In this document: piece by piece, positions 48-59,384 of the stretch | Position numbering within the stretch: the stretch's first letter is position 1 | How the letters are laid out: each line of letters starts with the position of its first letter | Source of the DNA: an uncultured Candidatus Saccharibacteria bacterium | GTDB taxonomy: Bacteria; Patescibacteriota; Minisyncoccia; Phycocordibacterales; CSBR16-119 | Assembly: GCA_964557535.1 (NCBI GenBank) | Contig: CAZLAD010000002.1 | Span: 85,560-149,559 of the forward strand | Direction of reading: 5' to 3' | Length of the DNA: 64,000 nt | The notes under the pieces: generated by a model | Told to the model about the DNA's origin: nothing | The model's database searches: none | Seen by the model: the letters and a program-made list of their open reading frames with translations, nothing else | Translations under genes and position numbers: made by a program

Positions 48-1919
48 TTATTCCACCGTTACGGATTTGGCCAAACCTTCGGGCTTGTCTGGATTTTTAC
101 CCTTCAGAACCGCCAACTCAAAAGCCAATATTTGAAGAGGTATAACATTAACAAACGGTGAAAATTCCTCTTTGACTTCTGGCATTTCAATGTGTACCGT
201 CGCCGGAATATTTGCCTTATTTCCCCTAGTCACAAGAGCGATGATCGGTGCTCCGCGCGCCTCAGCTTCTTTTATATTAGAAATCATTTTATCAATCTGT
301 GAAGACGAAGTGGCAATAGCAACAACCGGCATATGTGCACCCAAAAGACCGATTGGGCCATGCTTCATTTCTGAGGCAGCATAACCTTCGGCATGAATCC
401 CGGCGATTTCTTTGATTTTCAGAGCACCCTCAAGCGCTATCGGATAAGAAACGCCTCGTCCCAGATAATATGCGCTCGTAGCGTCTTTTAAAATGGAAAT
501 TGCCCGATTAATACTTTCTCTGTTCATGGAAACAACTTCATCAATATAAATTGGCAGTGACTGAAGTTCCTCGAACATTTTTTGATAAACATTTTTCGAG
601 AGATTTCCATTAATTCTAGCCAAGTGCAAAGAAAGCATCATGGCAACAGTCATCTGTGCCATAAAAGCTTTTGTCGAAGCAACGCCGAGTTCTCGTCCTG
701 CACGCAAAAATATTCCCGCATCGGTCATTTCAGCCAAATGAGACCCTTCGACATTACAAATCCCAAGGATTATGGCGCCGAGTTCCTTGGCATGTTCAAG
801 AGCCCCAATAGTATCTGCGGTCTCACCAGACTGAGAGATCCCAATAACAATACTTCCTGGACCAACCATTGTTTTTCGATACCTAAACTCACTTGCAAGT
901 TCCACGCTTACAGCAATACCGGCAATTGCCTCGCACCAATATTTAAAAAGTAGCGCAGAATTATAGGAAGTGCCATGCGCTACAACATAGATAACAGACG
1001 CTTGTGCCAAAACTTTTTCGTATTCTTTGATCCCACCCAAAACCACTTCCATGTCCTTATGATGCAACCTGCCCTGTAAAACATTTTCAATCATGCGTGA
1101 TTGTTCGTGAATTTCTTTATCCATCCAAAACTTATATTCTCCTTTTTCAACAGCATACAGAGTGGATTCCAGGTGTTTTATTTCAGGAATCTCTTCTTCC
1201 CCCGTACGGGAATCTTCTACTGTATAACCATCTTTGGTCGCAGTAATAATTCTGTGTGATGGAACAACGACATACGTTTCTGTATAATGTGCAAATGGAT
1301 AAACTTCCGAAGCAATGAAAAATTCCTTTTCACCGTCGTGTTCACCCACTCCAATACGCATGGTACGACCTCTAACCGCACCAACAAATGTCTCGGGTTC
1401 ATCAAGCGACATAACAATAAAAGCAAACGTTCCCTCTACTTGACCTAGTGCCAAACGAACGGATTCTTTTAGATTTTTATTTGATATTTTTTGGATGTAC
1501 TCAATCCAATTAACTAAAATCTCCGAGTCAGTGTCAGAAGCAAGTTTTAGTTTCTTGCCAGTTTCTTTCTCGATTGTTTCTTTGAGTGATAAATAGTTTT
1601 CTATGATTCCATTATGAACAATTATTAACCGTTGATTTTGGCTTAAATGAGGATGAGCATTGCGATCTTCGGGAGCACCATGGGTCGCCCAACGATTGTG
1701 CCCAATGGCAATGTTGGATTTCATGGATTCGTGATCGTGAACAACAACTAAAAATTCTTCTAGACAATCTTCGCCACCCTTTTTCCTAATTAAAAATTTA
1801 TCACCAGAAGCGATAGCAATCCCGAAGCCGTGATACCCTCTAGTCTCCGCCCTTTTTAGAGCGTCGATAACAATATCCGGGGCATTTCTCTTACCTATAT
1901 ATCCAATAATTCCACACAT
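48..1919 (-). CDS. glmS: glutamine--fructose-6-phosphate aminotransferase
   Basis: N-terminal MCGIIGY class-II amidotransferase motif, two C-terminal SIS domains, ends KSVTVE. ATG at 1919; the ORF track extends to a TTG at 1937. Confidence 0.93.
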   Translation of the reverse strand: MCGIIGYIGKRNAPDIVIDALKRAETRGYHGFGIAIASGDKFLIRKKGGEDCLEEFLVVVHDHESMKSNIAIGHNRWATHGAPEDRNAHPHLSQNQRLIIVHNGIIENYLSLKETIEKETGKKLKLASDTDSEILVNWIEYIQKISNKNLKESVRLALGQVEGTFAFIVMSLDEPETFVGAVRGRTMRIGVGEHDGEKEFFIASEVYPFAHYTETYVVVPSHRIITATKDGYTVEDSRTGEEEIPEIKHLESTLYAVEKGEYKFWMDKEIHEQSRMIENVLQGRLHHKDMEVVLGGIKEYEKVLAQASVIYVVAHGTSYNSALLFKYWCEAIAGIAVSVELASEFRYRKTMVGPGSIVIGISQSGETADTIGALEHAKELGAIILGICNVEGSHLAEMTDAGIFLRAGRELGVASTKAFMAQMTVAMMLSLHLARINGNLSKNVYQKMFEELQSLPIYIDEVVSMNRESINRAISILKDATSAYYLGRGVSYPIALEGALKIKEIAGIHAEGYAASEMKHGPIGLLGAHMPVVAIATSSSQIDKMISNIKEAEARGAPIIALVTRGNKANIPATVHIEMPEVKEEFSPFVNVIPLQILAFELAVLKGKNPDKPEGLAKSVTVE

Positions 1920-1988
1920 GAGTATGATTTTACACAAAACAAACCCCTTTTAAAAGGCAGAAATCTATCACTTTTAAATAACAAATCT

Positions 1989-2026
1989 GTATCATTTTTG
2001 TGGACGACCGTCCACAAAAATGATAC
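1989..2026. repeat. 38-bp near-perfect palindrome GTATCATTTTTGTGGACG-AC-CGTCCACAAAAATGATAC (copy 1)
   Basis: Seen directly. Abuts the stop codon of the wHTH-Cas2-like gene. Confidence 0.85.
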
Positions 2027-2028
2027 GC

Positions 2029-2613
2029 CTACAGATCAAATATTTTCTTCAATCTTTTTTCATTCTCTATATAACTTGTTTCCAAATAAATCACCTCTTC
2101 GACGAGCTTCGTGTCGGTCTTTATAAGATCGATCAAACCTTCACTTTTGTATGGGTACACCCACACGCTTGTTTGTAAAAGTCGAAACCCAATTTCTTGG
2201 AGTTTTCGACGGAAACGATTTCTACTCCCGCGACTTTTCTCCGGCACATCATAGACAACTACTCGCCATTTACCATCCCATTCTTTTTTGATTGGAATCT
2301 TATAGATATTCTTAAGATATGAGTCCCCTTTGTCTGTGATTTCCACATAAACTTCCCCACCACGAACACTCCTTTTTAAAAGTCCGAGCTTTATCAGTTT
2401 TTCCATCGAACGCTTGGCGCGAAAAATATGAGAGCGATTATCTCCAAGTTTTAGATTTTTTAATATCTTAATGGCGTTTGGCGCCATCATCGTCATACTC
2501 AACATCCCAGCAGTATAAATAGTCCGAAGCAAAACTTCCTGCCAATTTATTCTGTCTTTCCCTGCATATTTCGGCAATTTTATTTTCTTACGTCTTTCAC
2601 CACCCTTACTCAT
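2029..2613 (-). CDS. winged-helix DNA-binding domain fused to a Cas2-like domain (putative regulator)
   Basis: The N-terminal half has wHTH-like features (GLLKRSVRGGEVYVEITDKG wing). The C-terminal half WRVVVYDVPEKSRGSRNRFRRKLQEIGFRLLQTSVWVYPY follows the Cas2/VapD-fold pattern (VxxYDV..RRR..kL...G.R.Q.SVf). Long palindromes flank it on both sides. Confidence 0.55.
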   Translation of the reverse strand: MSKGGERRKKIKLPKYAGKDRINWQEVLLRTIYTAGMLSMTMMAPNAIKILKNLKLGDNRSHIFRAKRSMEKLIKLGLLKRSVRGGEVYVEITDKGDSYLKNIYKIPIKKEWDGKWRVVVYDVPEKSRGSRNRFRRKLQEIGFRLLQTSVWVYPYKSEGLIDLIKTDTKLVEEVIYLETSYIENEKRLKKIFDL

Positions 2614-2620
2614 TTTTTAA

Positions 2621-2662
2621 ATGTAACATTTAGTTGGACGACCGTCTAGTTTAATGTGACAT
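2621..2662. repeat. imperfect palindrome with the same GGACGACCGTC core (copy 2)
   Basis: 15 of 20 arm positions are symmetric. Lies 8 nt upstream of the start codon of the wHTH-Cas2-like gene. Confidence 0.6.
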
Positions 2663-2691: not shown

Positions 2692-2943
2692 CTATTTAAA
2701 AGGCATTAAAAACGAACGAAGCCCCGACGCATTTGCGTGGGGCTTCGGCATGTAGTACTTACCCCGTGGGGTTTCCTTTTGTTGTCTTGGGTTTTGTTCG
2801 ATCTTCAAGTTAAAGTGCTTGCTCCAATAAGGCGCAGTCACCAATACGAGGAAGAGAAGGACGAAGAAAACCAAGATTCCAGTGTATTCGTTTGGCTCGG
2901 GTTTGATTCCAAGCTTTTTGCTAATTCCGTATCCTGGTCCCAT
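2692..2943 (-). CDS. small membrane protein (hypothetical)
   Basis: 83-aa ORF with a central hydrophobic helix. Its 3' end runs through a terminator hairpin (2711-2748) and the stop codon lies in the U-tract. Confidence 0.4.
   Translation of the reverse strand: MGPGYGISKKLGIKPEPNEYTGILVFFVLLFLVLVTAPYWSKHFNLKIEQNPRQQKETPRGKYYMPKPHANASGLRSFLMPFK
2711..2748 (-). terminator. terminator GAAGCCCCGACGC-AUUUGC-GUGGGGCUUC plus U-tract
   Basis: Overlaps the 3' end of the small membrane-protein ORF. Confidence 0.6.
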
Positions 2944-6552: not shown

Positions 6553-7284
6553 TCAAGGACCAGCCGGACCAGCAGGACCAACCGGTCCACCGGTTGAGCC
6601 AGTACCAGTGGTTGTAGTAGATCCGTTGTCTGGTATAGAAACAACATCAAGCACACGCTGAGACACTGTCGTCTGCATATTAAAATCTGTCTCGGCGCCA
6701 CTTAAATTTACAGTACCGACCAAAATGATGGTTATGGTTGGTTGTTTGCCGTCATCTATCTGCGAACCATCGACGATGAAGCCAGATTTATCTGGATCTA
6801 TGTATATCTCCGGTGGAGTAATTGGAACCATCGTCCCAGAAGCAAAGTTGAGATTGTTATAATCTTTTTTCCAAATAATGCCACCGTTTATATAATAAGC
6901 GACTTGATTATACGGATCAGCTGATGAATATTGCCAATAAGGTTCAAAAGAAATACTTTCACACGGACCAAAGCTTGGGTTATCTGGACCATCGTTGGTC
7001 AATGGACCAGATGAAACACTATAAACATCGTTATACGTAACTGCACCAGAATCCACACAAACAAAGTAATTCCCCAATCTCATCGAGCGGGCCATATCTT
7101 CCATGATAAAGCTCATGTTGTCGATGATGGCGCGCATGGACTGGGTTTTTCTACTCGTGGTATTCACACCCAGCACCGCACCGATACCAACAACCATGAT
7201 CACCGTAAACAAACCAATAGAAATCATCACTTCCACCAAAGTAAATCCTTTCTCGTATTGTTTTTTGACTGTTGCACGCTTCAT
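6553..7284 (-). CDS. type IV pilin-like protein with collagen-like Gly-Pro C-terminal tail
   Basis: KGFTLVEVMISIGLF prepilin motif. C-terminus ...GTGSTGGPVGPAGPAGP. Confidence 0.8.
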   Translation of the reverse strand: MKRATVKKQYEKGFTLVEVMISIGLFTVIMVVGIGAVLGVNTTSRKTQSMRAIIDNMSFIMEDMARSMRLGNYFVCVDSGAVTYNDVYSVSSGPLTNDGPDNPSFGPCESISFEPYWQYSSADPYNQVAYYINGGIIWKKDYNNLNFASGTMVPITPPEIYIDPDKSGFIVDGSQIDDGKQPTITIILVGTVNLSGAETDFNMQTTVSQRVLDVVSIPDNGSTTTTGTGSTGGPVGPAGPAGP

Positions 7285-17741: not shown

Positions 17742-17937
17742 TGGCGCTTTGTAGAACTTGAATTTTCTAACTCCAAAGAAGCGGGTTTTTGATGTTCTTG
17801 TACTTCCCGATCATCGATCTTCTATTTCTCACGAATATATTTTAGCATGTCTAAATAGTCGGTTTTTGTTTCGAATATCACCTGCTCGCGCGCCGACACC
17901 TCAATCAAATGACAAAAGTCATTTTCTTGAGTCATTG

Positions 17938-18024
17938 CGGAGACGAGAGGATTCGAACCTCCGAGGGCTTTTACACCCTACCTCGTTAGCAGTGAGGCGC
18001 TTTCGACCACTCAGCCACGTCTCC
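17938..18024 (-). tRNA. tRNA-Ser (anticodon GCU), class II with long variable arm
   Basis: Reverse complement folds as acceptor GGAGACG/CGTCTCC, D-loop GAGTGGTCGAA, anticodon loop CUGCUAA, long variable arm, T-loop GGAGGTTCGAATCCTCT. No encoded CCA. Confidence 0.85.
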
Positions 18025-18182: not shown

Positions 18183-18269
18183 GGAGGATTGGATGAGTGG
18201 TTTAAATCAGCGGTTTACTAAACCGCCGGCTGGTAAAACGGCCCGTGAGTTCGAATCTCACATCCTCCG
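18183..18269 (+). tRNA. class II (Ser-like) tRNA with apparent ACU anticodon (unusual; possible pseudo- or atypical tRNA)
   Basis: Acceptor GGAGGAT/ATCCTCC, T-arm GTGAG-TTCGAAT-CTCAC, anticodon arm GCGGT-UUACUAA-ACCGC, long variable arm. Shares the GAGTGGT D-loop with the neighbouring tRNA-Ser. Confidence 0.6.
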
Positions 18270-18289
18270 CAAATTTTCTAAAAAAGCAA

Positions 18290-29440: not shown

Positions 29441-30157
29441 ATCCAACGTATATTCCCCCACCCTTGTCCTCTTTATCGAATATGCGATCCCGCCCATTTC
29501 ATTTGCAATACTTCGAACATAAGTTCCCGAGGAACAATTTATTTTAAATTTTGCGATTTGGAATTTCTCTGGAGCATTTTCTAAAATGTTTTTCCAAGCA
29601 CTTTTGATTTCTTCTTGACGGAAATCACCATGAACGAGATTGATTCGGTGCTGAATTTCCATCAAAACATCTTTCGCGGAAATGAAGTGCTCCTCCAATT
29701 TATCTAAACTAAAAATCTCAATTTCTTTTGTCGGCGCCTCAAAATCAACTCCATCTCGCGCCATTTGAAAAAGTGGTTTTCCGTCTACCGTCTTTGACGA
29801 ATACGCCGGATATTTTTGTGTATGTTTTCCAACAAAACTATCCTCGCTACCCATTACCATTTTCTCGCGGTCGCGAATGTTTGGTAATCTTGGGATTCCG
29901 AGGATGTCGTATGTGTCGGTTTGAACTCCGAACAAAACTTCGAAAATGTATTCTTTATCGAGACCCAAATACTCATCTTTCTTCTTGCATTCCTCGCCCG
30001 TGAGCACTATCAAAAGCCCCTCAGCCATTGGGTCCAGCCGTCCAGCATAAGTCATGGGAACACCATTGTATTCTGAATTCTCTGCGCGAAATCTCTCCAG
30101 ACACTCAAGCGGCGTTTCGCCAAGATTTTTGTAGAGTTTTAAAACAATCTTATTCAT
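29438..30157 (-). CDS. truB: tRNA pseudouridine(55) synthase TruB
   Basis: GRLDPMAEGLLIVLTGE catalytic Asp motif. 239 aa. Confidence 0.88.
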   Translation of the reverse strand: MNKIVLKLYKNLGETPLECLERFRAENSEYNGVPMTYAGRLDPMAEGLLIVLTGEECKKKDEYLGLDKEYIFEVLFGVQTDTYDILGIPRLPNIRDREKMVMGSEDSFVGKHTQKYPAYSSKTVDGKPLFQMARDGVDFEAPTKEIEIFSLDKLEEHFISAKDVLMEIQHRINLVHGDFRQEEIKSAWKNILENAPEKFQIAKFKINCSSGTYVRSIANEMGGIAYSIKRTRVGEYTLD

Positions 30158-37427: not shown

Positions 37428-37697
37428 TTACCAAGATGACTTGCGAACACCTGGAACTTCACCTATAGAAGCTAATTCGCGGAATTTGATACGAGAAAGT
37501 CCAAAGTCTCGTAGATATCCTCGTGGACGACCAGTGATCCCGCAACGATTCTTTACGCGTGTTGGACTAGAATTTTTTGGAAGCTTCTGAAGACCTTCGT
37601 AGTCTCCGGAAGCCTTAAGAGCTGCTCTTTTAGCAGCGTATTTTGCAACCATTTTGATGCGCTTATTATTTCGCGCGATTACTGATTTTTTAGCCAT
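37428..37697 (-). CDS. rpsN: 30S ribosomal protein S14 (long form)
   Basis: 89 aa, C-terminus [33 protein letters not shown]. Confidence 0.93.
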
Positions 37698-38133
37698 TGT
37701 TTTTTAGCTGTTAGCTTCTGGCCATTAGCTATTAGCTAAAGGCTAATGGCTAATGGCTCCGGTTCAGTAATATCTCACGTTTTTTCTTGAAGGTCCCGAG
37801 GGGCATTCAAGGAGAAACGCGGATTAAACTGAACTGAGGGCTATATTAGCAGATTGAGATTTTATGTCAATCAAAATAATTTGAGCCCCGGTCTTGTTAG
37901 ACCAGGGCCCCATAGCTGACACGTAAAGTGCTTTTGATAGCGACTTGAATAGCCAAAGGACTTTGGTCCTCGGCAGGGGCAAGAGCACCTGCAAGAATGC
38001 TCTGCCACCCGCCGAGACCATACGACTTGTTGGCATGAACTCTATCATACTCCAACCATATTGTCAAGCGATTTTGGACAATCTTTTACTACCCTGAATT
38101 TATTCATTCCAACGTTCCTCATTGTCTCCACCG

Positions 38134-38170
38134 GACCGTCTCCGCTAGGCCGGACCTAGCGGAGACGGTC
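38134..38170. repeat. perfect 16-bp GC-rich hairpin GACCGTCTCCGCTAGG-CCGGA-CCTAGCGGAGACGGTC
   Basis: Seen directly. Adjacent to palindrome copy 3. No U-tract on either strand. Confidence 0.7.
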
Positions 38171-38184
38171 TCGCGGATAAAAAT

Positions 38185-38222
38185 GTATCATTTTTGTGGA
38201 CGGTCGTCTCAAAAAATGATAC
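38185..38222. repeat. long AT-arm/GC-core palindrome, copy 3 (GTATCATTTTTGTGGACGGTCGTCTCAAAAAATGATAC)
   Basis: Near-identical to the palindrome at 1989-2026 downstream of the wHTH-Cas2-like gene. Confidence 0.8.
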
Positions 38223-38290
38223 GCAAGAAAAATTATGAGATATGAAACAAGAAAGCCCGCGGGCGGCTTTCAAGGGCCAAGAGCGGGCTA

Positions 38291-38689
38291 TTAGGCAGAT
38301 TTGAGGTGGTAACGGCCTTCGAGATAGACACGAAGGGCGTCTTGTACGATTATCAGATCTTTTGTTTCTAGCTCCTCAGACAGAAGGTTCGGCACCATCT
38401 CGATGAAATAGTGCTGGAACATGGCCGCTAGATCATCCAACTCTTCGTTGAAGTTTGCCATGTCTTTTGGAGTAGCTCTGTGATTCCATTCAGTAATCGG
38501 TAGGGCTGCTGGCACGCGATTTCCAGAAAGCCCTTTAAAGGCTATCCTATGCGCTTTTGAGAGAGCTATGTCGATCATACTCACCAACGTGAGCAAACGA
38601 CTCGCCTCTTTAGGGAACAGTTCGCGAATGAGATCGTGCACTGTGGGGATCTCATTTTTTGAGGTCTCATTTTTAGTTAGCATGGCCAC
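38291..38689 (-). CDS. orphan 132-aa protein inserted between rplE and rpsN
   Basis: Higher GC (about 47%). Five spaced His residues (possible DinB-like helical bundle, speculative). Confidence 0.55.
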   Translation of the reverse strand: MAMLTKNETSKNEIPTVHDLIRELFPKEASRLLTLVSMIDIALSKAHRIAFKGLSGNRVPAALPITEWNHRATPKDMANFNEELDDLAAMFQHYFIEMVPNLLSEELETKDLIIVQDALRVYLEGRYHLKSA

Positions 38690-38775
38690 TGAGTTTGTTT
38701 TACCTTACACCAATCTCTAAAAAAACAAAAGCCCCTTTTGGGGCGATTGTTTTCTTAATACTTAATTCCTAATTC

Positions 38776-39315
38776 TTACTTCTTAAACGGAATTCCGAGG
38801 TAATCGAAGAATGCTTTAGCTTCTTCTTTGTTCTTTGCAGTCGTTACAAATGTGATCGCGAGGCCAAAAACGTCTTTGAGTTCTTCGTCCCCTGTTTCTG
38901 GGAAGATCGTGTGTTCTTTGATACCGATTGTCAGGTTTCCGACGTCATCGATTCCTTTCGATTCGAGTCCGCGGAAGTCTTTGGTTCGAGGAAATGACAC
39001 ATGGATTAGTTTGTCGACAAACGAATTCATGCGTTCACCGCGAAGTGTAACCATCTGACCAATGACTTCGTTTTCGCGAAGTTTGAAAGACGCGATTGAC
39101 TGTTTGGCTGCACGTGGAGATGTTTTCTGGCCAGTAATCTTGGCAAGTCGGTCAGCGATAAAATCATTTTTATTTTTATCGTTTTTCATTTTCGATCCTG
39201 TTCCAGAAGAAACAACGACTTTTACCAATCGTGGCGCAGACAAAGGATTTTTGTAACCAAATTTTGGTTTCAAAACCTTGTAAGTATTTGCTAGTTTTTG
39301 TTTAGTAGTTTCCAT
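38776..39315 (-). CDS. rplE: 50S ribosomal protein L5
   Basis: 179 aa, L5. Confidence 0.93.
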   Translation of the reverse strand: METTKQKLANTYKVLKPKFGYKNPLSAPRLVKVVVSSGTGSKMKNDKNKNDFIADRLAKITGQKTSPRAAKQSIASFKLRENEVIGQMVTLRGERMNSFVDKLIHVSFPRTKDFRGLESKGIDDVGNLTIGIKEHTIFPETGDEELKDVFGLAITFVTTAKNKEEAKAFFDYLGIPFKK

Positions 39316-41618: not shown

Positions 41619-41622
41619 ATTA

Positions 41623-42090
41623 TTAGCTGTTAGCTGTTAGCTTTTGGCTTTTAGCTTTTTTGGCGACCCCCGCTCGGGCTGGCTTTTTGACTGTAGCCTT
41701 CTTGGCAACGGGTTTTTCGGCTTTTTCTACTTTGATCTCTGCTACTTCCTTGGCACCAGCAGATTTTTTGGAAGCCAAAGTTACCACAACATGGCAAGTT
41801 CTTTTATTTATCGGATATCCGGAACCACGAGCACGAGGTCGCATACGTTTCAATGTGATGCCTTTGTTGACCTCGATACTTTTGACCATCAAATCAGCAG
41901 TGTCGACACCAGAATTTACGCGAGCATTAGCGATCGCAGAATCAATCAATTTTTTGATTGGGTCAGCAGAGCGTTTCGGCATAAAAGACAAAATCAAAGA
42001 CGCATTCTGAGCAGATTTACCAACGACGGCCTTCGCCACTAGGCGGACCTTTCGAGGTGATTGTCTGTAGTTTTTAAGAATGGCTTTCAT
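41623..42090 (-). CDS. rplV: 50S ribosomal protein L22 (with C-terminal Ala/Lys extension encoded by a TAGC-type repeat)
   Basis: 155 aa. The C-terminal tail ...KKAKSQKLTANS is encoded by the GCTAA repeat block at 41625-41665. Confidence 0.92.
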   Translation of the reverse strand: MKAILKNYRQSPRKVRLVAKAVVGKSAQNASLILSFMPKRSADPIKKLIDSAIANARVNSGVDTADLMVKSIEVNKGITLKRMRPRARGSGYPINKRTCHVVVTLASKKSAGAKEVAEIKVEKAEKPVAKKATVKKPARAGVAKKAKSQKLTANS

Positions 42091-44093: not shown

Positions 44094-44215
44094 TTGATTA
44101 TCGTTTTTAAAACACTACTTATCGGCAAGTGCAACCATAATTTGTAAATTAAGAAGCCTTGAGCCCTTAGCTTTTAGCCGTTAGCTAACGGCCAATGGCT
44201 AAGAGCTAACAGCTC

Positions 44216-44653
44216 TTAGATGAATTCTATCTTGTCTCCCTTTTTCAAGGTGACGTATGCTTTGCGACCTCCGCGCTTAACGCCATTTGCCGTCTGACGG
44301 AACACTCGTTTCGTCGGAATTGCGAGGACGTTTACGCGAACCGGTGTAAAACCGTAAATTGCCTTGATGGCTTTTACGACTTCAATCTTGTTCGCGCCCG
44401 GATAGACATCAAATGTATAGACGTTTTGATCTGAGACATTGGCGGCCTTCTCCGTAATACGAGGATTTCGGATAACCATAGAATCAACTTTGGCTGTTCC
44501 CTTCTTTGCCTCCTTTACGACCGCGGGCTTTTCGGCTTTTTCTGCAACCCCCGCCCGAACGACCGATTTTCGGTCGGGCAGGTTTTTAGCCGCTACTTTT
44601 TTTGTAGCTGGTGCTGGCTTCTTCTTGTCATCAGATTTTGAAAAAATTCCCAT
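44216..44653 (-). CDS. rplW: 50S ribosomal protein L23 (with N-terminal basic extension)
   Basis: 145 aa. Confidence 0.88.
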   Translation of the reverse strand: MGIFSKSDDKKKPAPATKKVAAKNLPDRKSVVRAGVAEKAEKPAVVKEAKKGTAKVDSMVIRNPRITEKAANVSDQNVYTFDVYPGANKIEVVKAIKAIYGFTPVRVNVLAIPTKRVFRQTANGVKRGGRKAYVTLKKGDKIEFI

Positions 44654-48345: not shown

Positions 48346-48864
48346 TTGAGAAATAGAATAAACAACCAAATACGTACCGAAGAAGTTCGTCTCATCGAAG
48401 GTGCCGAAGGTATGCCGACCGGCGTCATGAAGACCGCCGACGCTATAGCACTCGCCGCCGAACACGGACTTGATCTCATCGAGATTACCGCGACTGCCAA
48501 CCCACCCATTGCAAAAATAATGGATTATGGTAAATTCGAGTACGAACAAAACAAGAAGCAGAAAGTTGCAAAGGCAAATGCACACCGAACCGAGACCAAA
48601 TCTATCCAGATTAAAGTCGCAACAGGTGACCACGATCTCGCTCTAAAAGCGAAAAAGGCGTCCGAATGGCTCGCCGAAGGACATCGTGTAAAGATTGAAC
48701 TGTATCTCGTCGGTCGCTCGAAGTACACCGCTGACACTTTCAAAAAAGAACGTCTAGATCGAGTACTTCATCTCATCACTGAGAATTACAAAATTGCCGA
48801 GGCCTACAAACCAAGTCCCCGTGGCGTCATGATCACCATCGAGAGAGACACAAAGAAAAATTAA
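48346..48864 (+). CDS. infC: translation initiation factor IF-3 (non-AUG start likely)
   Basis: RINNQIRTEEVRLI...GVMKT...DLIEI... typical of IF-3. The track N-terminus (from 48226) lies upstream of the promoter, and a TTG at 48346 follows AAGGAA. The start position is uncertain. Confidence 0.8.
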   Translation: MRNRINNQIRTEEVRLIEGAEGMPTGVMKTADAIALAAEHGLDLIEITATANPPIAKIMDYGKFEYEQNKKQKVAKANAHRTETKSIQIKVATGDHDLALKAKKASEWLAEGHRVKIELYLVGRSKYTADTFKKERLDRVLHLITENYKIAEAYKPSPRGVMITIERDTKKN

Positions 48865-48932
48865 GAAAGCCATTAGCCTTTAGCCATTAGTTTTTAGCTA
48901 ACGGCCAACGGCTAAGAGCTAAAAGCTATAAT

Positions 48933-49157
48933 ATGAAAACAAACAAATCACTAGCCAAAAGAATAAAGATCACCAAAACCGGCAAGCTCAAAGCTCGCAA
49001 ACCTGGTTTTAACCATTTCAATGCAAAACAAAAGCGCCGAAAGCAACTCCAGGGCAAGACAGCTATCGACATGGTGCTGACAAACAGAGCCAAGGCCCGA
49101 TTCTTCCCTTACGCGAATACAAAGGTCCGAAAGCCAAAACCGGAAACTAAAAAATAG
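48933..49157 (+). CDS. rpmI: 50S ribosomal protein L35
   Basis: 74 aa, basic. Confidence 0.85.
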   Translation: MKTNKSLAKRIKITKTGKLKARKPGFNHFNAKQKRRKQLQGKTAIDMVLTNRAKARFFPYANTKVRKPKPETKK

Positions 49158-56298: not shown

Positions 56299-56437
56299 TA
56301 CTCATTTGACGAAAATCCTGTTTTCGTTTATTATTAGTACGTTATTGTCCTGGCTCGCGCCGGGATTTATTGTTAAAAGAGGCATTACAATTAAATAAGC
56401 TAAGGGCCAATGGCTAAAAGCTAACGGCTCAAAACAT

Positions 56438-57720: not shown

Positions 57721-58305
57721 ATGGCAAACATAAACGAAAAACCATCTAAATTCATGTACAACCTTCTTCACGTTCTTCCACCGTTTGTGGACGAGGCGAA
57801 AGGAATAGTAAACACAATTGTTGAAGTTTCTGCGGGAAGCATAAATAAATACGAACTAATTACCGAAAGCGGCCAACTAAAACTTGATCGTGTCGGATAT
57901 TCTTCCTTAGCATATCCATTTACCTATGGAGCAATTCCAGCAACCTGGGACTTCGATGGTGACCCGCTAGACGTTGAGATTGTAAACATTACCGAGCCTC
58001 TTGTTCCGGGATCTCTGGTAGAAATTCGAGTCATCGGAGTTATGAAATTCGTTGACGGAGGCGAAGTCGATGACAAAATTATCGCAGTTTTAAATAACGA
58101 TAAACGTTCTGACCACATCAAAAGCTACAAAGATTTGGGTGAGTACTGGGAAAAAGAGACGAAATACTATTGGGAGAACTACAAGGCCATGAAGAAGCCT
58201 GGCACGGGAGTAGTCGAGACTTTCCACGGACCAGAGGAAGCTATAAAAGTAATAAAAGAATGCGCGGAAAGATATCAAAAAGATTACGCGCCTAAACTTT
58301 CTTAA
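57721..58305 (+). CDS. ppa: inorganic pyrophosphatase (family I)
   Basis: DGDPLDV metal-binding motif. 194 aa. Confidence 0.88.
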   Translation: MANINEKPSKFMYNLLHVLPPFVDEAKGIVNTIVEVSAGSINKYELITESGQLKLDRVGYSSLAYPFTYGAIPATWDFDGDPLDVEIVNITEPLVPGSLVEIRVIGVMKFVDGGEVDDKIIAVLNNDKRSDHIKSYKDLGEYWEKETKYYWENYKAMKKPGTGVVETFHGPEEAIKVIKECAERYQKDYAPKLS

Positions 58306-58306
58306 A

Positions 58307-59326
58307 ATGAGCATCGAAATAAAAAAACTAGAAAAATCATTGGTGGAAATAAAAGGCGAAATTGACGCCGTGGAGCTCGAAAGTTTCCGCGCGACGGCTT
58401 TGAAAAAGCTTGGCGAATCTGTCGAAATTGATGGTTTCAGAAAGGGTCATGTACCGGCAAATATCCTAGAGCAAAAGCTTCCGGAAATGGCGATTTTGGA
58501 AGAAATGTCGCAAATGGCCTTGTCAAAAAATTACGGCAAAATCCTGATCGATAACAAAATCGATGCTATTGGCTATCCGAAAATAAATATTACGAAACTC
58601 GCCAAAGGCAATCCTCTCGGTTTTACTATCACTGTTGCCACACTTCCGGAAATAAAACTTCCCGACTACAAATCTCTCGCGAAAAAAGCGAATTCAAAAG
58701 AAGAAAAAGTCGAAGTGACTGACGAAGAATTCGAAGCTATCATCAAACAAGCCAAGATAATCCGCGCCAAAGAAGCGGTCAAGGGTGGCGAAATTGATGA
58801 GAATGCCCTACCGGAGCTCGATGACGAATATGTGAAAACTCTAGGTGGTTTTGAAAACCTAGAAGACTTCAACAAGAAAATTCGCGAAAATGTTCTCGCA
58901 GAAAAAGAGATGCGGGCCAAAGACAAGAAACGTTTAGAAATCATCGAGGCAATTATTTCTGAAACAAATCTCGAGGTTCCGGAAGTTCTCATTGATTCCG
59001 AAGTCCACAAAATGATTCATAAGATGAGAAATGATATCGAAGCCATGGGACTAAAATATGATGACTATCTGAAAACCCTAAACAAAACAGAAGCCGATCT
59101 TCACAAAGACTTCGAAAAAGACGCCGAGAAGCGTGCCAAGCTCCAACTCATCGTCGGCGAAATCGCCAAAGCTGAGAAAATCGAAGCACCAAAAGAAGCC
59201 GTGGAAGCCGAGGTAAAAAAAGTTACTGAAATTTACAAAGACGTAAGCCCTGAAAATGCCCGTGCCTATATCGAATCAGTCCTCCAGAACGAAGAAGTCT
59301 TCAAATTCCTCGAAGCCCAAAAATAG
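58307..59326 (+). CDS. tig: trigger factor (short form)
   Basis: N-terminal ribosome-binding GFRKGHVP signature. 339 aa. Position upstream of clpP. Confidence 0.8.
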   Translation: MSIEIKKLEKSLVEIKGEIDAVELESFRATALKKLGESVEIDGFRKGHVPANILEQKLPEMAILEEMSQMALSKNYGKILIDNKIDAIGYPKINITKLAKGNPLGFTITVATLPEIKLPDYKSLAKKANSKEEKVEVTDEEFEAIIKQAKIIRAKEAVKGGEIDENALPELDDEYVKTLGGFENLEDFNKKIRENVLAEKEMRAKDKKRLEIIEAIISETNLEVPEVLIDSEVHKMIHKMRNDIEAMGLKYDDYLKTLNKTEADLHKDFEKDAEKRAKLQLIVGEIAKAEKIEAPKEAVEAEVKKVTEIYKDVSPENARAYIESVLQNEEVFKFLEAQK

Positions 59327-59384
59327 TGTAGAATCAATCCATTACAAGCTAACTGCTAAAAGCTAACAACTAATAGCTCCAAAA

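Follow-up and report, generated by a model that had tools for sequence, protein, structure and literature searches.

The 194-aa protein encoded near the left end of the window (the whole stretch of 64,000 nucleotides analysed here, from a Saccharibacteria genome) is a truncated PaaX-family regulator built of two domains and lacking the C-terminal effector-binding domain. Its gene lies between two palindromes of 38–40 bp, and sequence comparison shows that this layout of a gene between two palindromes belongs to the whole family, recurring in most of the relatives sampled across CPR bacteria. Taken together the comparisons suggest that the protein is probably an autorepressor with paired operators, for which the palindromes are the predicted sites. 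The features concerned are:

2029–2613, minus strand: gene for the short PaaX-like protein (194 aa), identified by a PF20803 match and by profile and fold comparison
1989–2026, no strand: downstream palindrome, the second cognate site, perfect over 18+2+18 nt (GTATCATTTTTGTGGACG-AC-CGTCCACAAAAATGATAC), dyad at 2007/2008
2621–2662, no strand: upstream 38–40 bp quasi-palindrome, the predicted operator, diverged, with the same core as 1989–2026 (GGACGACCGTC), dyad at 2641/2642
2620–2648, minus strand: putative promoter within the upstream palindrome, composed of a -35-like TAGACG (2648–2643), a 17-nt spacer and TGT plus a TACATT -10 (2625–2620)
38134–38170, no strand: perfect GC-rich hairpin of 16 bp, 14 nt from the solo palindrome
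38185–38222, no strand: solo palindrome copy, in minus-strand reading with 3 mismatches to the 1989–2026 palindrome

The N-terminal winged helix spans approximately residues 24–103 and the Cas2-like PaaX_M domain residues 110–186, the protein stopping 8 residues past the latter; a domain search found no match to the PaaX_C effector-binding domain. The PaaX_M model PF20803 matches with an E-value of 1e-21 (77.3 bits, cut-off 24), while of the two Cas2 models PF09827 gives a marginal match (E 3e-5, 24.5 bits, cut-off 23.8) and TIGR01573 is formally passed (28.8 bits, cut-off 24.5). The PaaX equivalog level is not reached (TIGR02277, 43.1 bits versus a cut-off of 264.55), and the winged helix is weak by sequence (HTH_27, E 0.029). 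The sequence-only reading had described a winged-helix half joined to a half of the Cas2/VapD fold; the domain call was correct and its imprecision lay in the second half, which is the central Cas2-like domain of PaaX, the match to Cas2 itself being marginal.

Among solved structures the best relative is E. coli PaaX (8A39), followed by Rv0674, VapD and Cas2. PaaX is reached in the PDB with the family profile (E 0.0037, residues 63–179 aligned with 8A39 residues 58–171) and not with the single sequence, which retrieves Cas2 alone and marginally (E 0.18). A Foldseek search with the AF2 model places 8A39 first (E 1e-5) with VapD and Cas2 chains next. In this model residues 116–179 adopt a β-α-β-β-α-β fold (pLDDT ~88) and the winged-helix region forms three helices and a β-hairpin wing, the N-terminal half being of low confidence (pLDDT <50 at residues 1–22 and 34–59). 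The Cas2-like fold proposed earlier for the C-terminal half is borne out by this comparison with PaaX, VapD and Cas2.

The protein resembles E. coli PaaX (8A39; TIGR02277), a repressor that responds to phenylacetyl-CoA, in its N-terminal winged helix, in a WDGKW linker motif common to both in the profile alignment and in its central Cas2-like domain. However it is 194 rather than 316 aa long, and since the C-terminal effector domain is missing no control by a phenylacetyl-CoA-type ligand is expected. The surroundings differ as well, with no paa genes near the gene, whose neighbours are ligA, glmS, gatC/gatA and pilin genes. With Cas2 and VapD it has in common the ferredoxin-like β-α-β-β-α-β fold, a YDV...R...Q.S motif and an Asp ending β1 that aligns with the Cas2 catalytic Asp. 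This residue (D122), whose counterpart in Cas2 3EXC is the Asp of the VVYDV motif, has been lost in E. coli PaaX. Unlike Cas2 and VapD, the protein carries a fused DNA-binding winged helix and sits in housekeeping surroundings. No cas1 is found among the called neighbours of related loci, the window shows no CRISPR array, and no partner resembling VapX was noticed.

On direct reading all the reported features (three palindromes, GC hairpin, 194-aa gene) are where they had first been placed, and comparison with shuffled sequence puts them far above chance. The 38-mer has 3 matches in the window at up to 3 mismatches (0.00 expected from shuffles) and GGACGRYCGTC has 4 (0.14 expected), while a relaxed scan (C-K-R-Y-M-G centre, complementary arms at ≥8/11 positions) recovers exactly these three palindromes versus 0.2 in shuffles. 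The downstream palindrome, initially described as near-perfect, is perfect and begins 2 nt past the stop codon of the gene; the upstream palindrome ends 7 nt from the ATG at 2613. A fourth candidate at 29870 (ATTACCA...TGGTAAT around GCGGTCGC) was rejected as chance: it pairs at 7/11 arm positions and falls inside a 239-aa ORF, presumably a pseudouridine synthase judging from its sequence by eye.

The same bracket characterises the family. In 70 of 85 distinct homologous loci (32–80% identity), and in 17 of 347 control ORFs, the start is closely preceded by a cognate 38–40 bp palindrome and a second one lies at the stop codon, a bracket being scored when the upstream and downstream flanks had a common motif scoring at least 14. 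Orthologs at 69–80% identity keep both palindromes and the ligA-...-gatC synteny, with the upstream palindrome at the same position in L005, L007, L009 and L010 and the stop codon included in the left arm of the downstream palindrome (TGTAA followed by CATT); in the wider family the downstream dyad lies between -13 and about +60 nt from the stop codon. Homologs at 32–41% identity have different but cognate palindromes on both sides. The arm sequences are lineage-specific, a contig with two paralogs has a different palindrome type for each of them, and orthologous sites are more alike than the paralogous site within the same genome.

At 50% identity the family forms 921 clusters if E <1e-30 is required and 3770 at E <1e-10, and nearly all of its 150 best representatives are 170–220 aa long. 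Of 232 members, all have D122 and S149, and 99% have W112, D113 and R131; overall the Cas2-like domain is strongly conserved and the winged helix variable. No phage homologs were found, and plasmid homologs were distant full-length actinobacterial PaaX regulators alone, the short form being absent.

A matching division is seen in the sites. The palindrome centre is always C-K-R-Y-M-G, every one of 102 sites having C at -3 and G at +3. Arm-to-arm complementarity is 0.91–1.0 at positions 2–4 from the dyad, 0.61–0.68 at positions 5–8 and 0.75–0.94 at positions 9–19, and is at background beyond position 20, giving the repeat unit sharp boundaries at ±19–20. This profile fits protein boxes rather than a full hairpin, and the invariant centre and variable arms of the site appear to be mirrored by the conserved Cas2-like domain and variable winged helix of the protein. 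The three window sites and those of orthologs follow a GTAACA-N26-TGTTAC geometry, and it is in geometry only that these predicted sites match the E. coli PaaX operator, TGATTC(N27)GAATCA, with its 6-bp half-sites about 27 bp apart (PMC9493321). Mutual information between the centre class (CG-type or TA-type) and protein columns was set aside as confounded by phylogeny; the top columns, equally confounded, fall in the wing (78–84), the linker (100–102) and at position 141. Upstream and downstream copies also have an asymmetric linker in common (identity 0.7–0.8) and lie mainly in direct orientation (direct 15, inverted 3); neither the sharing of the linker nor the direct orientation is explained by a symmetric operator, which counts against the operator reading.

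The upstream palindrome holds a plausible promoter for a leaderless transcript. The putative -10 (2625–2620) stands 6 nt before the ATG, and the promoter as a whole scores 8/12 plus an extended -10, below the scanner's 9/12 threshold and thus not called. A like layout recurs in L007 (TGGACG-17-TACAGT-6-ATG) and L022 (GAGACG-17-TACAAT-7-ATG), and in several lineages the -35/-10-like hexamers of the upstream site end 6–7 nt before the ATG. In the 1989–2026 palindrome the -10-like hexamer is poor (TACAGA).

From the comparative evidence as a whole we infer the following mechanism. The Cas2-like domain probably forms a dimer, which most likely binds the 38–40 bp palindromes with its two winged helices on the lineage-specific outer arms, about 28 bp apart, and the Cas2-like dimer over the conserved C-K-R-Y-M-G centre. 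The upstream site would span the -35 and -10 elements of a leaderless promoter that serves the gene itself, and by binding there the protein would repress its own transcription, as E. coli PaaX does at its Px promoter (PMC9493321). The stop-codon site would be an integral part of the module rather than an operator of the neighbouring gene, most likely cooperating with the upstream site, whether through a loop of about 630 bp or with bound protein as a roadblock insulating the unit, and the few solo sites elsewhere would be extra binding sites made by copying. Neither a second site at the stop codon nor a conserved central hexamer has been described for PaaX.

Paired operators flanking a repressor's own gene or region are familiar from phage lambda CI, with OR and OL, and from looping repressors such as GalR, LacI and DeoR. 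The present module likewise has two cognate sites hundreds of bp apart with one over the predicted promoter, an arrangement compatible with cooperative looping, but throughout this family the second site keeps to the stop codon of the regulator itself, and the protein is a predicted dimer. With cognate palindromes throughout the family and the upstream one overlapping the predicted promoter, operator sites and autoregulation, among the explanations first offered, are best supported by the comparison. Two points sit less easily with the operator reading: a protein whose conserved sites mainly flank its own gene has no obvious cellular payoff, and the downstream site has no evident regulatory logic, 14/54 loci having no co-directional gene that starts within 300 nt.

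Genomes have few solo copies, about 1–2 each. Strict copies of the palindrome number 2–3 per Saccharibacteria MAG and about 3 solo copies were found in 496 kb of flanks, these counts being lower bounds given incomplete MAGs and a strict pattern. The window's own solo copy (38185–38222), first suggested to mark a distant target of the regulator, turns out to lie within a strain-specific insertion between rplE and rpsN and finds no support as a conserved regulatory target: the insertion is absent in L110 and L111, a different ORFan without a palindrome occupies the position in L106–L109, and these relatives are close, their L5 being 94–96% identical. The copy carries this genome's own GTATCA arms and linker, like the stop-codon copy, from which it looks to have been copied. 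The adjoining 132-aa gene is a true ORFan, as had been supposed, matching itself alone among 5.8 billion proteins, and an Rfam search of the insertion region (37600–38800) returned sub-threshold noise and nothing more. The nearby GC hairpin (38134–38170) is followed by no T-tract on either strand and has no further copies in the window or in 112 loci; it is at most a possible part of the palindrome system.

In MAG CAZHCS the solo copy matches the genome's own upstream copy, taken as its reverse complement, across 27 nt that include the linker, and lies in an insertion between ppa and tig, which abut in the window. Both of these solo copies are in strain-specific insertions, each adjoining an ORFan and a terminator, with no similarity between the solo-adjoining ORFans (132 aa in the window, 114 aa in L017). 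Other solo copies (L018, L020) lie between ordinary genes, as judged by ORF translations, with no ORFan nearby. That solo copies repeat one flanking copy almost base for base is unexplained by a symmetric operator and is a further observation against the operator reading.

In the most probable of the alternatives, the palindromes are low-copy mobile or copy-prone elements which the wHTH-Cas2-like protein, as their cognate factor, would maintain or mobilise, by analogy with a RAYT gene and its REP sequences. The Cas2-like domain, with its retained catalytic-type Asp, would act on the palindrome in duplex or extruded-hairpin form, nicking or processing it and yielding new solo copies, sometimes with adjacent foreign DNA. 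RAYT genes are single-copy, vertically inherited and bracketed by cognate REP/REPIN palindromes with more copies elsewhere in the genome, an organisation that the bracket found here recalls. The window solo copy, with the arms and linker of the stop-codon copy and 3/38 differences, the inverted CAZHCS copy, the location of both beside an ORFan and terminator, the sharp unit boundaries, and an invariant D122 where E. coli PaaX has lost the Asp all favour such a role. However, RAYT proteins have an HUH/Y1 transposase fold, whereas no transposase or integrase fold is present in this wHTH and Cas2-like protein, and we know of no strand-transfer activity of Cas2 alone. REP sequences occur in tens to hundreds of copies, compared with the 1–2 solo copies per genome (lower bounds) seen here, and the flanking sites here, unlike those of RAYT genes, overlap a predicted promoter and the stop codon. 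The gene and both sites are syntenic across 69–80% identity, with orthologous sites closer than the paralogous site in the same genome, the L018 and L020 copies have no ORFan nearby, and no short-form homolog was found on phages or plasmids. We consider this explanation unlikely. The earlier idea of a mobile palindromic repeat family keeps some force in that solo copies look copy-pasted, but the small number of them and the stable synteny of gene and sites speak against it.

A more far-reaching form, to which we assign a low probability, is that the short wHTH-Cas2-like CPR proteins and their palindromes constitute a self-contained DNA element, the Cas2-like domain, with its invariant catalytic-type Asp, acting on the C-K-R-Y-M-G centre and occasionally copying the palindrome to new sites or promoting an adjacent foreign insertion. 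It would explain the solo copies at the edges of strain-specific ORFan insertions and, if true, would represent a system, RAYT/REP-like or of the integration-hotspot kind, that uses a Cas2 fold and no Cas1.

It is quite improbable that the downstream palindrome is instead the operator of the next gene (glmS in the window, gatC in relatives), with the bracket an accident of compact genomes. Many loci do have a co-directional gene start 40–130 nt past the downstream dyad, and the mainly direct orientation of the two copies would suit this arrangement. But different lineages have unrelated genes at this place (glmS, gatC, a TP_methylase protein, a PHP-domain protein), the 14/54 loci noted above have no such gene within 300 nt, and the site follows the regulator's stop codon (dyad -13 to about +60) rather than the next start: its distances to the stop and to the next gene are 15 and 159 nt in L007 and 19 and 267 nt in L015. 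In the window about 35 bp separate it from the -35 hexamer of glmS, which it precedes, leaving no promoter overlap.

Less credible still is a role as RNA hairpins, with the stop-codon copy a terminator or 3' stabiliser, the upstream copy a terminator of the preceding gene, and the protein unrelated or RNA-binding. A terminator scan flags 2026–1989 on the minus strand (17 pairs, tail AGATTTGTTA), many family sites are perfect or near-perfect palindromes, and the titles of the structure matches include ribonucleases among the Cas2 and VapD relatives. The T-rich tail is however found in the window alone and is not kept in orthologs, so the palindromes lack the conserved T-tract that follows the GC-rich stem of an intrinsic terminator; other window genes have ordinary terminators of GC stem and T-tract. 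Complementarity also drops to about 0.6 at positions 5–8, the upstream copy, if the promoter reading is right, would lie mostly upstream of the transcription start and go untranscribed with the gene, and the matching of lineage-specific arms to individual paralogs implies that something reads them specifically, which generic termination would not require.

The least probable reading, largely refuted by context, is a system derived from Cas2 that would be CRISPR-like or serve in defence. In its favour, the TIGR01573 and PF09827 cut-offs are formally passed and palindrome-insert-palindrome superficially recalls repeat-spacer-repeat. But PaaX_M fits far better than Cas2, the "insert" is the gene itself and stable, and the genes on either side have housekeeping functions. 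The array scan, in agreement with the original observation, found no CRISPR-like array anywhere in the window, and the called neighbours of related loci include neither cas1 nor any other cas gene. The uncharacterised Cas2-derived system once proposed has no support beyond retained Cas2 hallmark residues.

Two other classes of site were considered and rejected. For an RTP- or Tus-Ter-like replication terminator, there are few sites per genome, one of them by the gene, and GC skew, uniformly negative across the window, does not switch near 2 kb or 38 kb. Integron attC core sites read RYYYAAC ... GTTRRRY with intI nearby; the TGTAAC/GTTACA arms misfit this consensus by eye and no integrase is found among the called neighbours.

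An open-access literature search found no paper connecting PaaX with Cas2 or with CPR bacteria. To our knowledge, CPR bacteria (Patescibacteria) have tiny genomes and few characterised regulators, and the layout described here suggests a self-regulating module that has gone unstudied, and not one related to CRISPR. With the putative binding site adjoining the gene in most loci examined, protein-DNA specificity pairs may be read straight from metagenomes, making the family a natural series on how a PaaX/Cas2-fold dimer would read a 40-bp site and one that could be a source of orthogonal repressor-operator pairs. The stop-codon site and the retained Cas2 catalytic-type residues would allow a mechanism undescribed for PaaX, be it looping, roadblocking or DNA processing, and the family may bear on how the Cas2 fold came to be common to regulators and CRISPR adaptation.

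The ORF, the three palindromes and the GC hairpin, read directly from the sequence, lie where the sequence-only reading had placed them and have the sequences it gave:

2029-2613, minus strand: paaX-like ORF of 194 aa
1989-2026: downstream palindrome, perfect (18+2+18), starting 2 nt past the paaX-like stop codon
2621-2662: upstream palindrome, diverged, with core GGACGACCGTC as in the downstream copy, ending 7 nt ahead of the ATG
38185-38222: third palindrome copy, mismatching the downstream copy at 3 of 38 positions
14 nt from the third palindrome copy: perfect 16-bp GC hairpin

These palindromes and the hairpin are not a chance outcome. At up to 3 mismatches the 38-mer has 3 matches in the window against 0.00 in shuffles, its core has 4 against 0.14 expected, and a looser scan for the same architecture returns exactly the three known sites. 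The nearest genome records are Candidatus Saccharibacteria MAGs.

Residues 110-186 of the protein match PaaX_M, the PaaX protein central Cas2-like domain (Pfam, E 1e-21). The Cas2-like fold proposed earlier for the C-terminal half is upheld, with PaaX_M as the closest family and Cas2 itself marginal: the Cas2 Pfam model matches at threshold only, and in NCBIfam PaaX is matched partially, far under the equivalog cut-off, with a marginal match to Cas2. The best solved relative by family profile is E. coli PaaX (8A39), the alignment starting at helix 3 of the winged helix, taking in a common WDGKW linker and spanning the Cas2-like domain. In the AF2 model residues 110-194 are confident (pLDDT about 88) and adopt a β-α-β-β-α-β fold, the N-terminus being poor, and Foldseek ranks PaaX first, followed by Rv0674, VapD and numerous Cas2 chains. 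The chain terminates directly behind the Cas2-like domain, so that it lacks the C-terminal domain with which PaaX binds its effector. With 921 clusters at 50% identity (E < 1e-30) the family is large, and almost all of its best 150 representatives are 170-220 aa long. D122 and S149 do not vary among 232 distinct members, and W112, D113, R131 and P154 reach 99% conservation; the winged-helix half varies much more across the family than the Cas2-like half. D122 aligns to the Asp in the VVYDV motif of Cas2, whereas E. coli PaaX has Ser-Glu at this position.

Orthologs (69-80% identity) share the gene order pilin genes, ligA, small ORF, paaX-like gene and gatC/gatA, glmS intervening before gatC/gatA only in the window's genome among those compared. 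Each has one palindrome just 5' of the start and a second with the stop codon inside its left arm (consensus TGTAACATT-N5-TGGACGRYCGTCCA-N5-AATGTTACA). Homologs at 32-41% identity are still bracketed in unrelated gene contexts, by palindromes of different sequence (e.g. TTACCTAACTCTACCGGCCGCAAAAGTTAGGTAA, ATTACCTTCATTTCATGCTATAGCATGAAATGAAGGTAAT). A common motif (score of at least 14) joins the upstream and downstream flanks at 70 of 85 distinct loci, compared with 17 of 347 control ORFs drawn from these loci, and on one contig two paralogs each have a separate palindrome type. By these comparisons the bracket is a trait of the protein family. At one family locus (L092:4761-4875) several tandem partial copies of the cognate site (ACGCTATAGCGT centre) take the place of the single upstream palindrome. 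The small ORF between ligA and the paaX-like gene (2692-2943, minus strand; 83 aa) has its own terminator, is kept at 80-83 aa in relatives and, judging by a hydrophobic stretch, may encode a membrane protein; in the same-species locus L001 an overlapping 154-aa gene is called there.

Over 102 distinct sites, arm complementarity is 0.91-1.0 at positions 2-4 from the dyad, drops to 0.61-0.68 at positions 5-8, recovers to 0.75-0.94 at positions 9-19 and beyond position 20 is at background (about 0.3). All 102 carry C at -3 and G at +3, and of 140 flanking copies tallied 111 have CGGTCG/CGACCG, CGGCCG or CTATAG as their central hexamer. The site thus resolves into two symmetric boxes, a centre common to all lineages and arms of about 11 bp particular to each, with a linker of lower symmetry in between. 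This anatomy fits a symmetric protein as reader better than a continuous hairpin. The arm geometry, GTAACA-N26-TGTTAC, can be set beside the published operator of E. coli PaaX, a repressor of its own promoter Px: TGATTC(N27)GAATCA (PMC9493321). The constant centre and variable arms of the site parallel the invariant Cas2-like domain and variable winged helix of the protein, which suggests that a Cas2-like dimer may sit over the dyad with the winged helices on the arms.

The upstream copy coincides with a putative promoter. In gene orientation the window reads TAGACG, a 17-nt spacer, TGT-TACATT, TAAAAA and ATG; the -35-like and extended -10-like elements thus end 6 nt ahead of the start codon, a predicted position that implies a leaderless mRNA. 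The same arrangement occurs at two relatives' loci, L007 (TGGACG-17-TACAGT-6-ATG) and L022 (GAGACG-17-TACAAT-7-ATG), and in the CCTATAGG class TATAAT lies 7 nt ahead of the ATG at no fewer than 8 loci. A promoter scanner at a 9/12 threshold does not call the window's upstream promoter. How far the -10 lies from the dyad varies among lineages, so promoter elements alone do not account for the palindrome. A -10-like hexamer also ends 6-8 nt before the ATG, with no Shine-Dalgarno seen, in the paaX-like gene, glmS (true start the ATG at 1919, giving MCGIIGY) and gatC (window 1917-1954 and 2611-2625; L005 about 6650-6669), and leaderless transcripts may be frequent in this lineage.

Counted from the stop codon, the downstream dyad lies between -13 and about +60 nt, and its position follows the stop and not the start of the next gene. 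The genes 3' of it vary by lineage, and no co-directional ORF starts within 300 nt in 14 of the 54 loci whose sequence extends far enough. Since it tracks the stop codon while the next genes vary, the downstream copy is best read as part of the regulator's own unit. The window's downstream copy is placed about 35 bp 5' of the -35 hexamer of glmS, and its own -10 is poor (TACAGA). The two copies of one locus are 0.7-1.0 identical to ±19, with background farther out, and at asymmetry-informative loci are mostly in direct orientation (15 vs 3); they are therefore homologous copies rather than independently evolved sites. The downstream copy may loop with the upstream site, act as a bound roadblock or insulator, or be a relic of the unit's origin.

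The distant palindrome, suggested earlier as a target of the regulator, is not a conserved one, being missing at rplE-rpsN in relatives with 94-96% identical L5. Those at 96% have 155 nt there, taken up by the terminator of rplE and the promoter and leader of rpsN and nothing more, and those at 94% a different 122-aa ORFan. Besides a terminator, the palindrome and the GC hairpin, the window insertion holds a 132-aa ORFan that finds no match elsewhere in protein searches and a structured RNA with promoter and terminator of its own. The palindrome of this insertion shares both the GTATCA arms of its own genome and the linker with the stop-codon copy, and so looks to have been copied within the window's lineage. 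In another Saccharibacteria MAG, CAZHCS, a lone solo copy lies within an insertion (L017:4787-5222; ppa - palindrome - terminator - 114-aa ORFan - tig) where ppa and tig abut in the window (57808-58296, 58295-59323); in a third, CAZRRY, ORF translations place two solo copies between ordinary genes. Solo copies number about three in 496 kb of flanks, and the genome-wide count likewise bears out a rare site, with 2-3 strict matches per MAG in a scan of 185,579 species representatives.

The rplE-rpsN junction (window 37700-38775; L106:4540-5162, L110:4540-4696) is a hot spot of variable insertion, with nothing inserted in the closest relatives, the 122-aa ORFan in others and the 132-aa ORFan plus extra elements in the window. 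The two cassettes are alike in their 5' region (AGATT-GTGTAA...AACAAAC) with unrelated ORFs. On the minus strand, 37875-38067 carries a promoter-like TTGACA-17-TAGAGT, then an RNA of about 150 nt and a terminator (37910-37883); its fold is very stable (MFE -75.6 kcal/mol, z -6.4), it has no Rfam match, and it is a candidate novel small RNA. Intergenic quasi-palindromes also occur among the ribosomal-protein and nusA-tig genes, one array directly upstream of the rpsN start codon:

37687-37758, 41620-41656, 44154-44224, 48863-48937, 56398-56430, 59347-59379: 7-nt-periodic repeats (TTAGCTN / AGCYNTT)

Elsewhere, ARAGORN calls a second tRNA-Ser (anticodon ACT; 18183-18270, plus strand) adjoining tRNA-Ser(GCT) (17937-18024, minus strand); Rfam at gathering threshold finds only the minus-strand tRNA of the pair, and the plus-strand call is possibly false or unusual.

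A predicted PaaX-type autorepressor with paired cognate operators would explain the most, favoured by domain identity, operator geometry, promoter overlap, paralog-site pairing and low copy number. Left unexplained by this reading are the second site fixed at the stop codon and the copy-pasted look of solo copies at insertion edges. Both are addressed by a RAYT/REP-like system, in which the retained Cas2 Asp would be put to use, but very low copy number, stable synteny and the lack of a transposase fold clash with it. An operator of the next gene, an RNA hairpin or terminator, and a CRISPR-like system are contradicted by specific results, such as the stop-codon tracking, the complementarity dip at 5-8 and a search of the window that found no CRISPR-like array, respectively.

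The protein family is already covered by a Pfam domain model; for the short form, its cognate palindromes and the bracket we found no description in the open-access literature. The autorepressor reading describes a predicted PaaX-family repressor without an effector domain, with Cas2 hallmark residues conserved and a putative self-bracketing operator pair, and this self-bracketing short PaaX-like unit is widespread in CPR bacteria.
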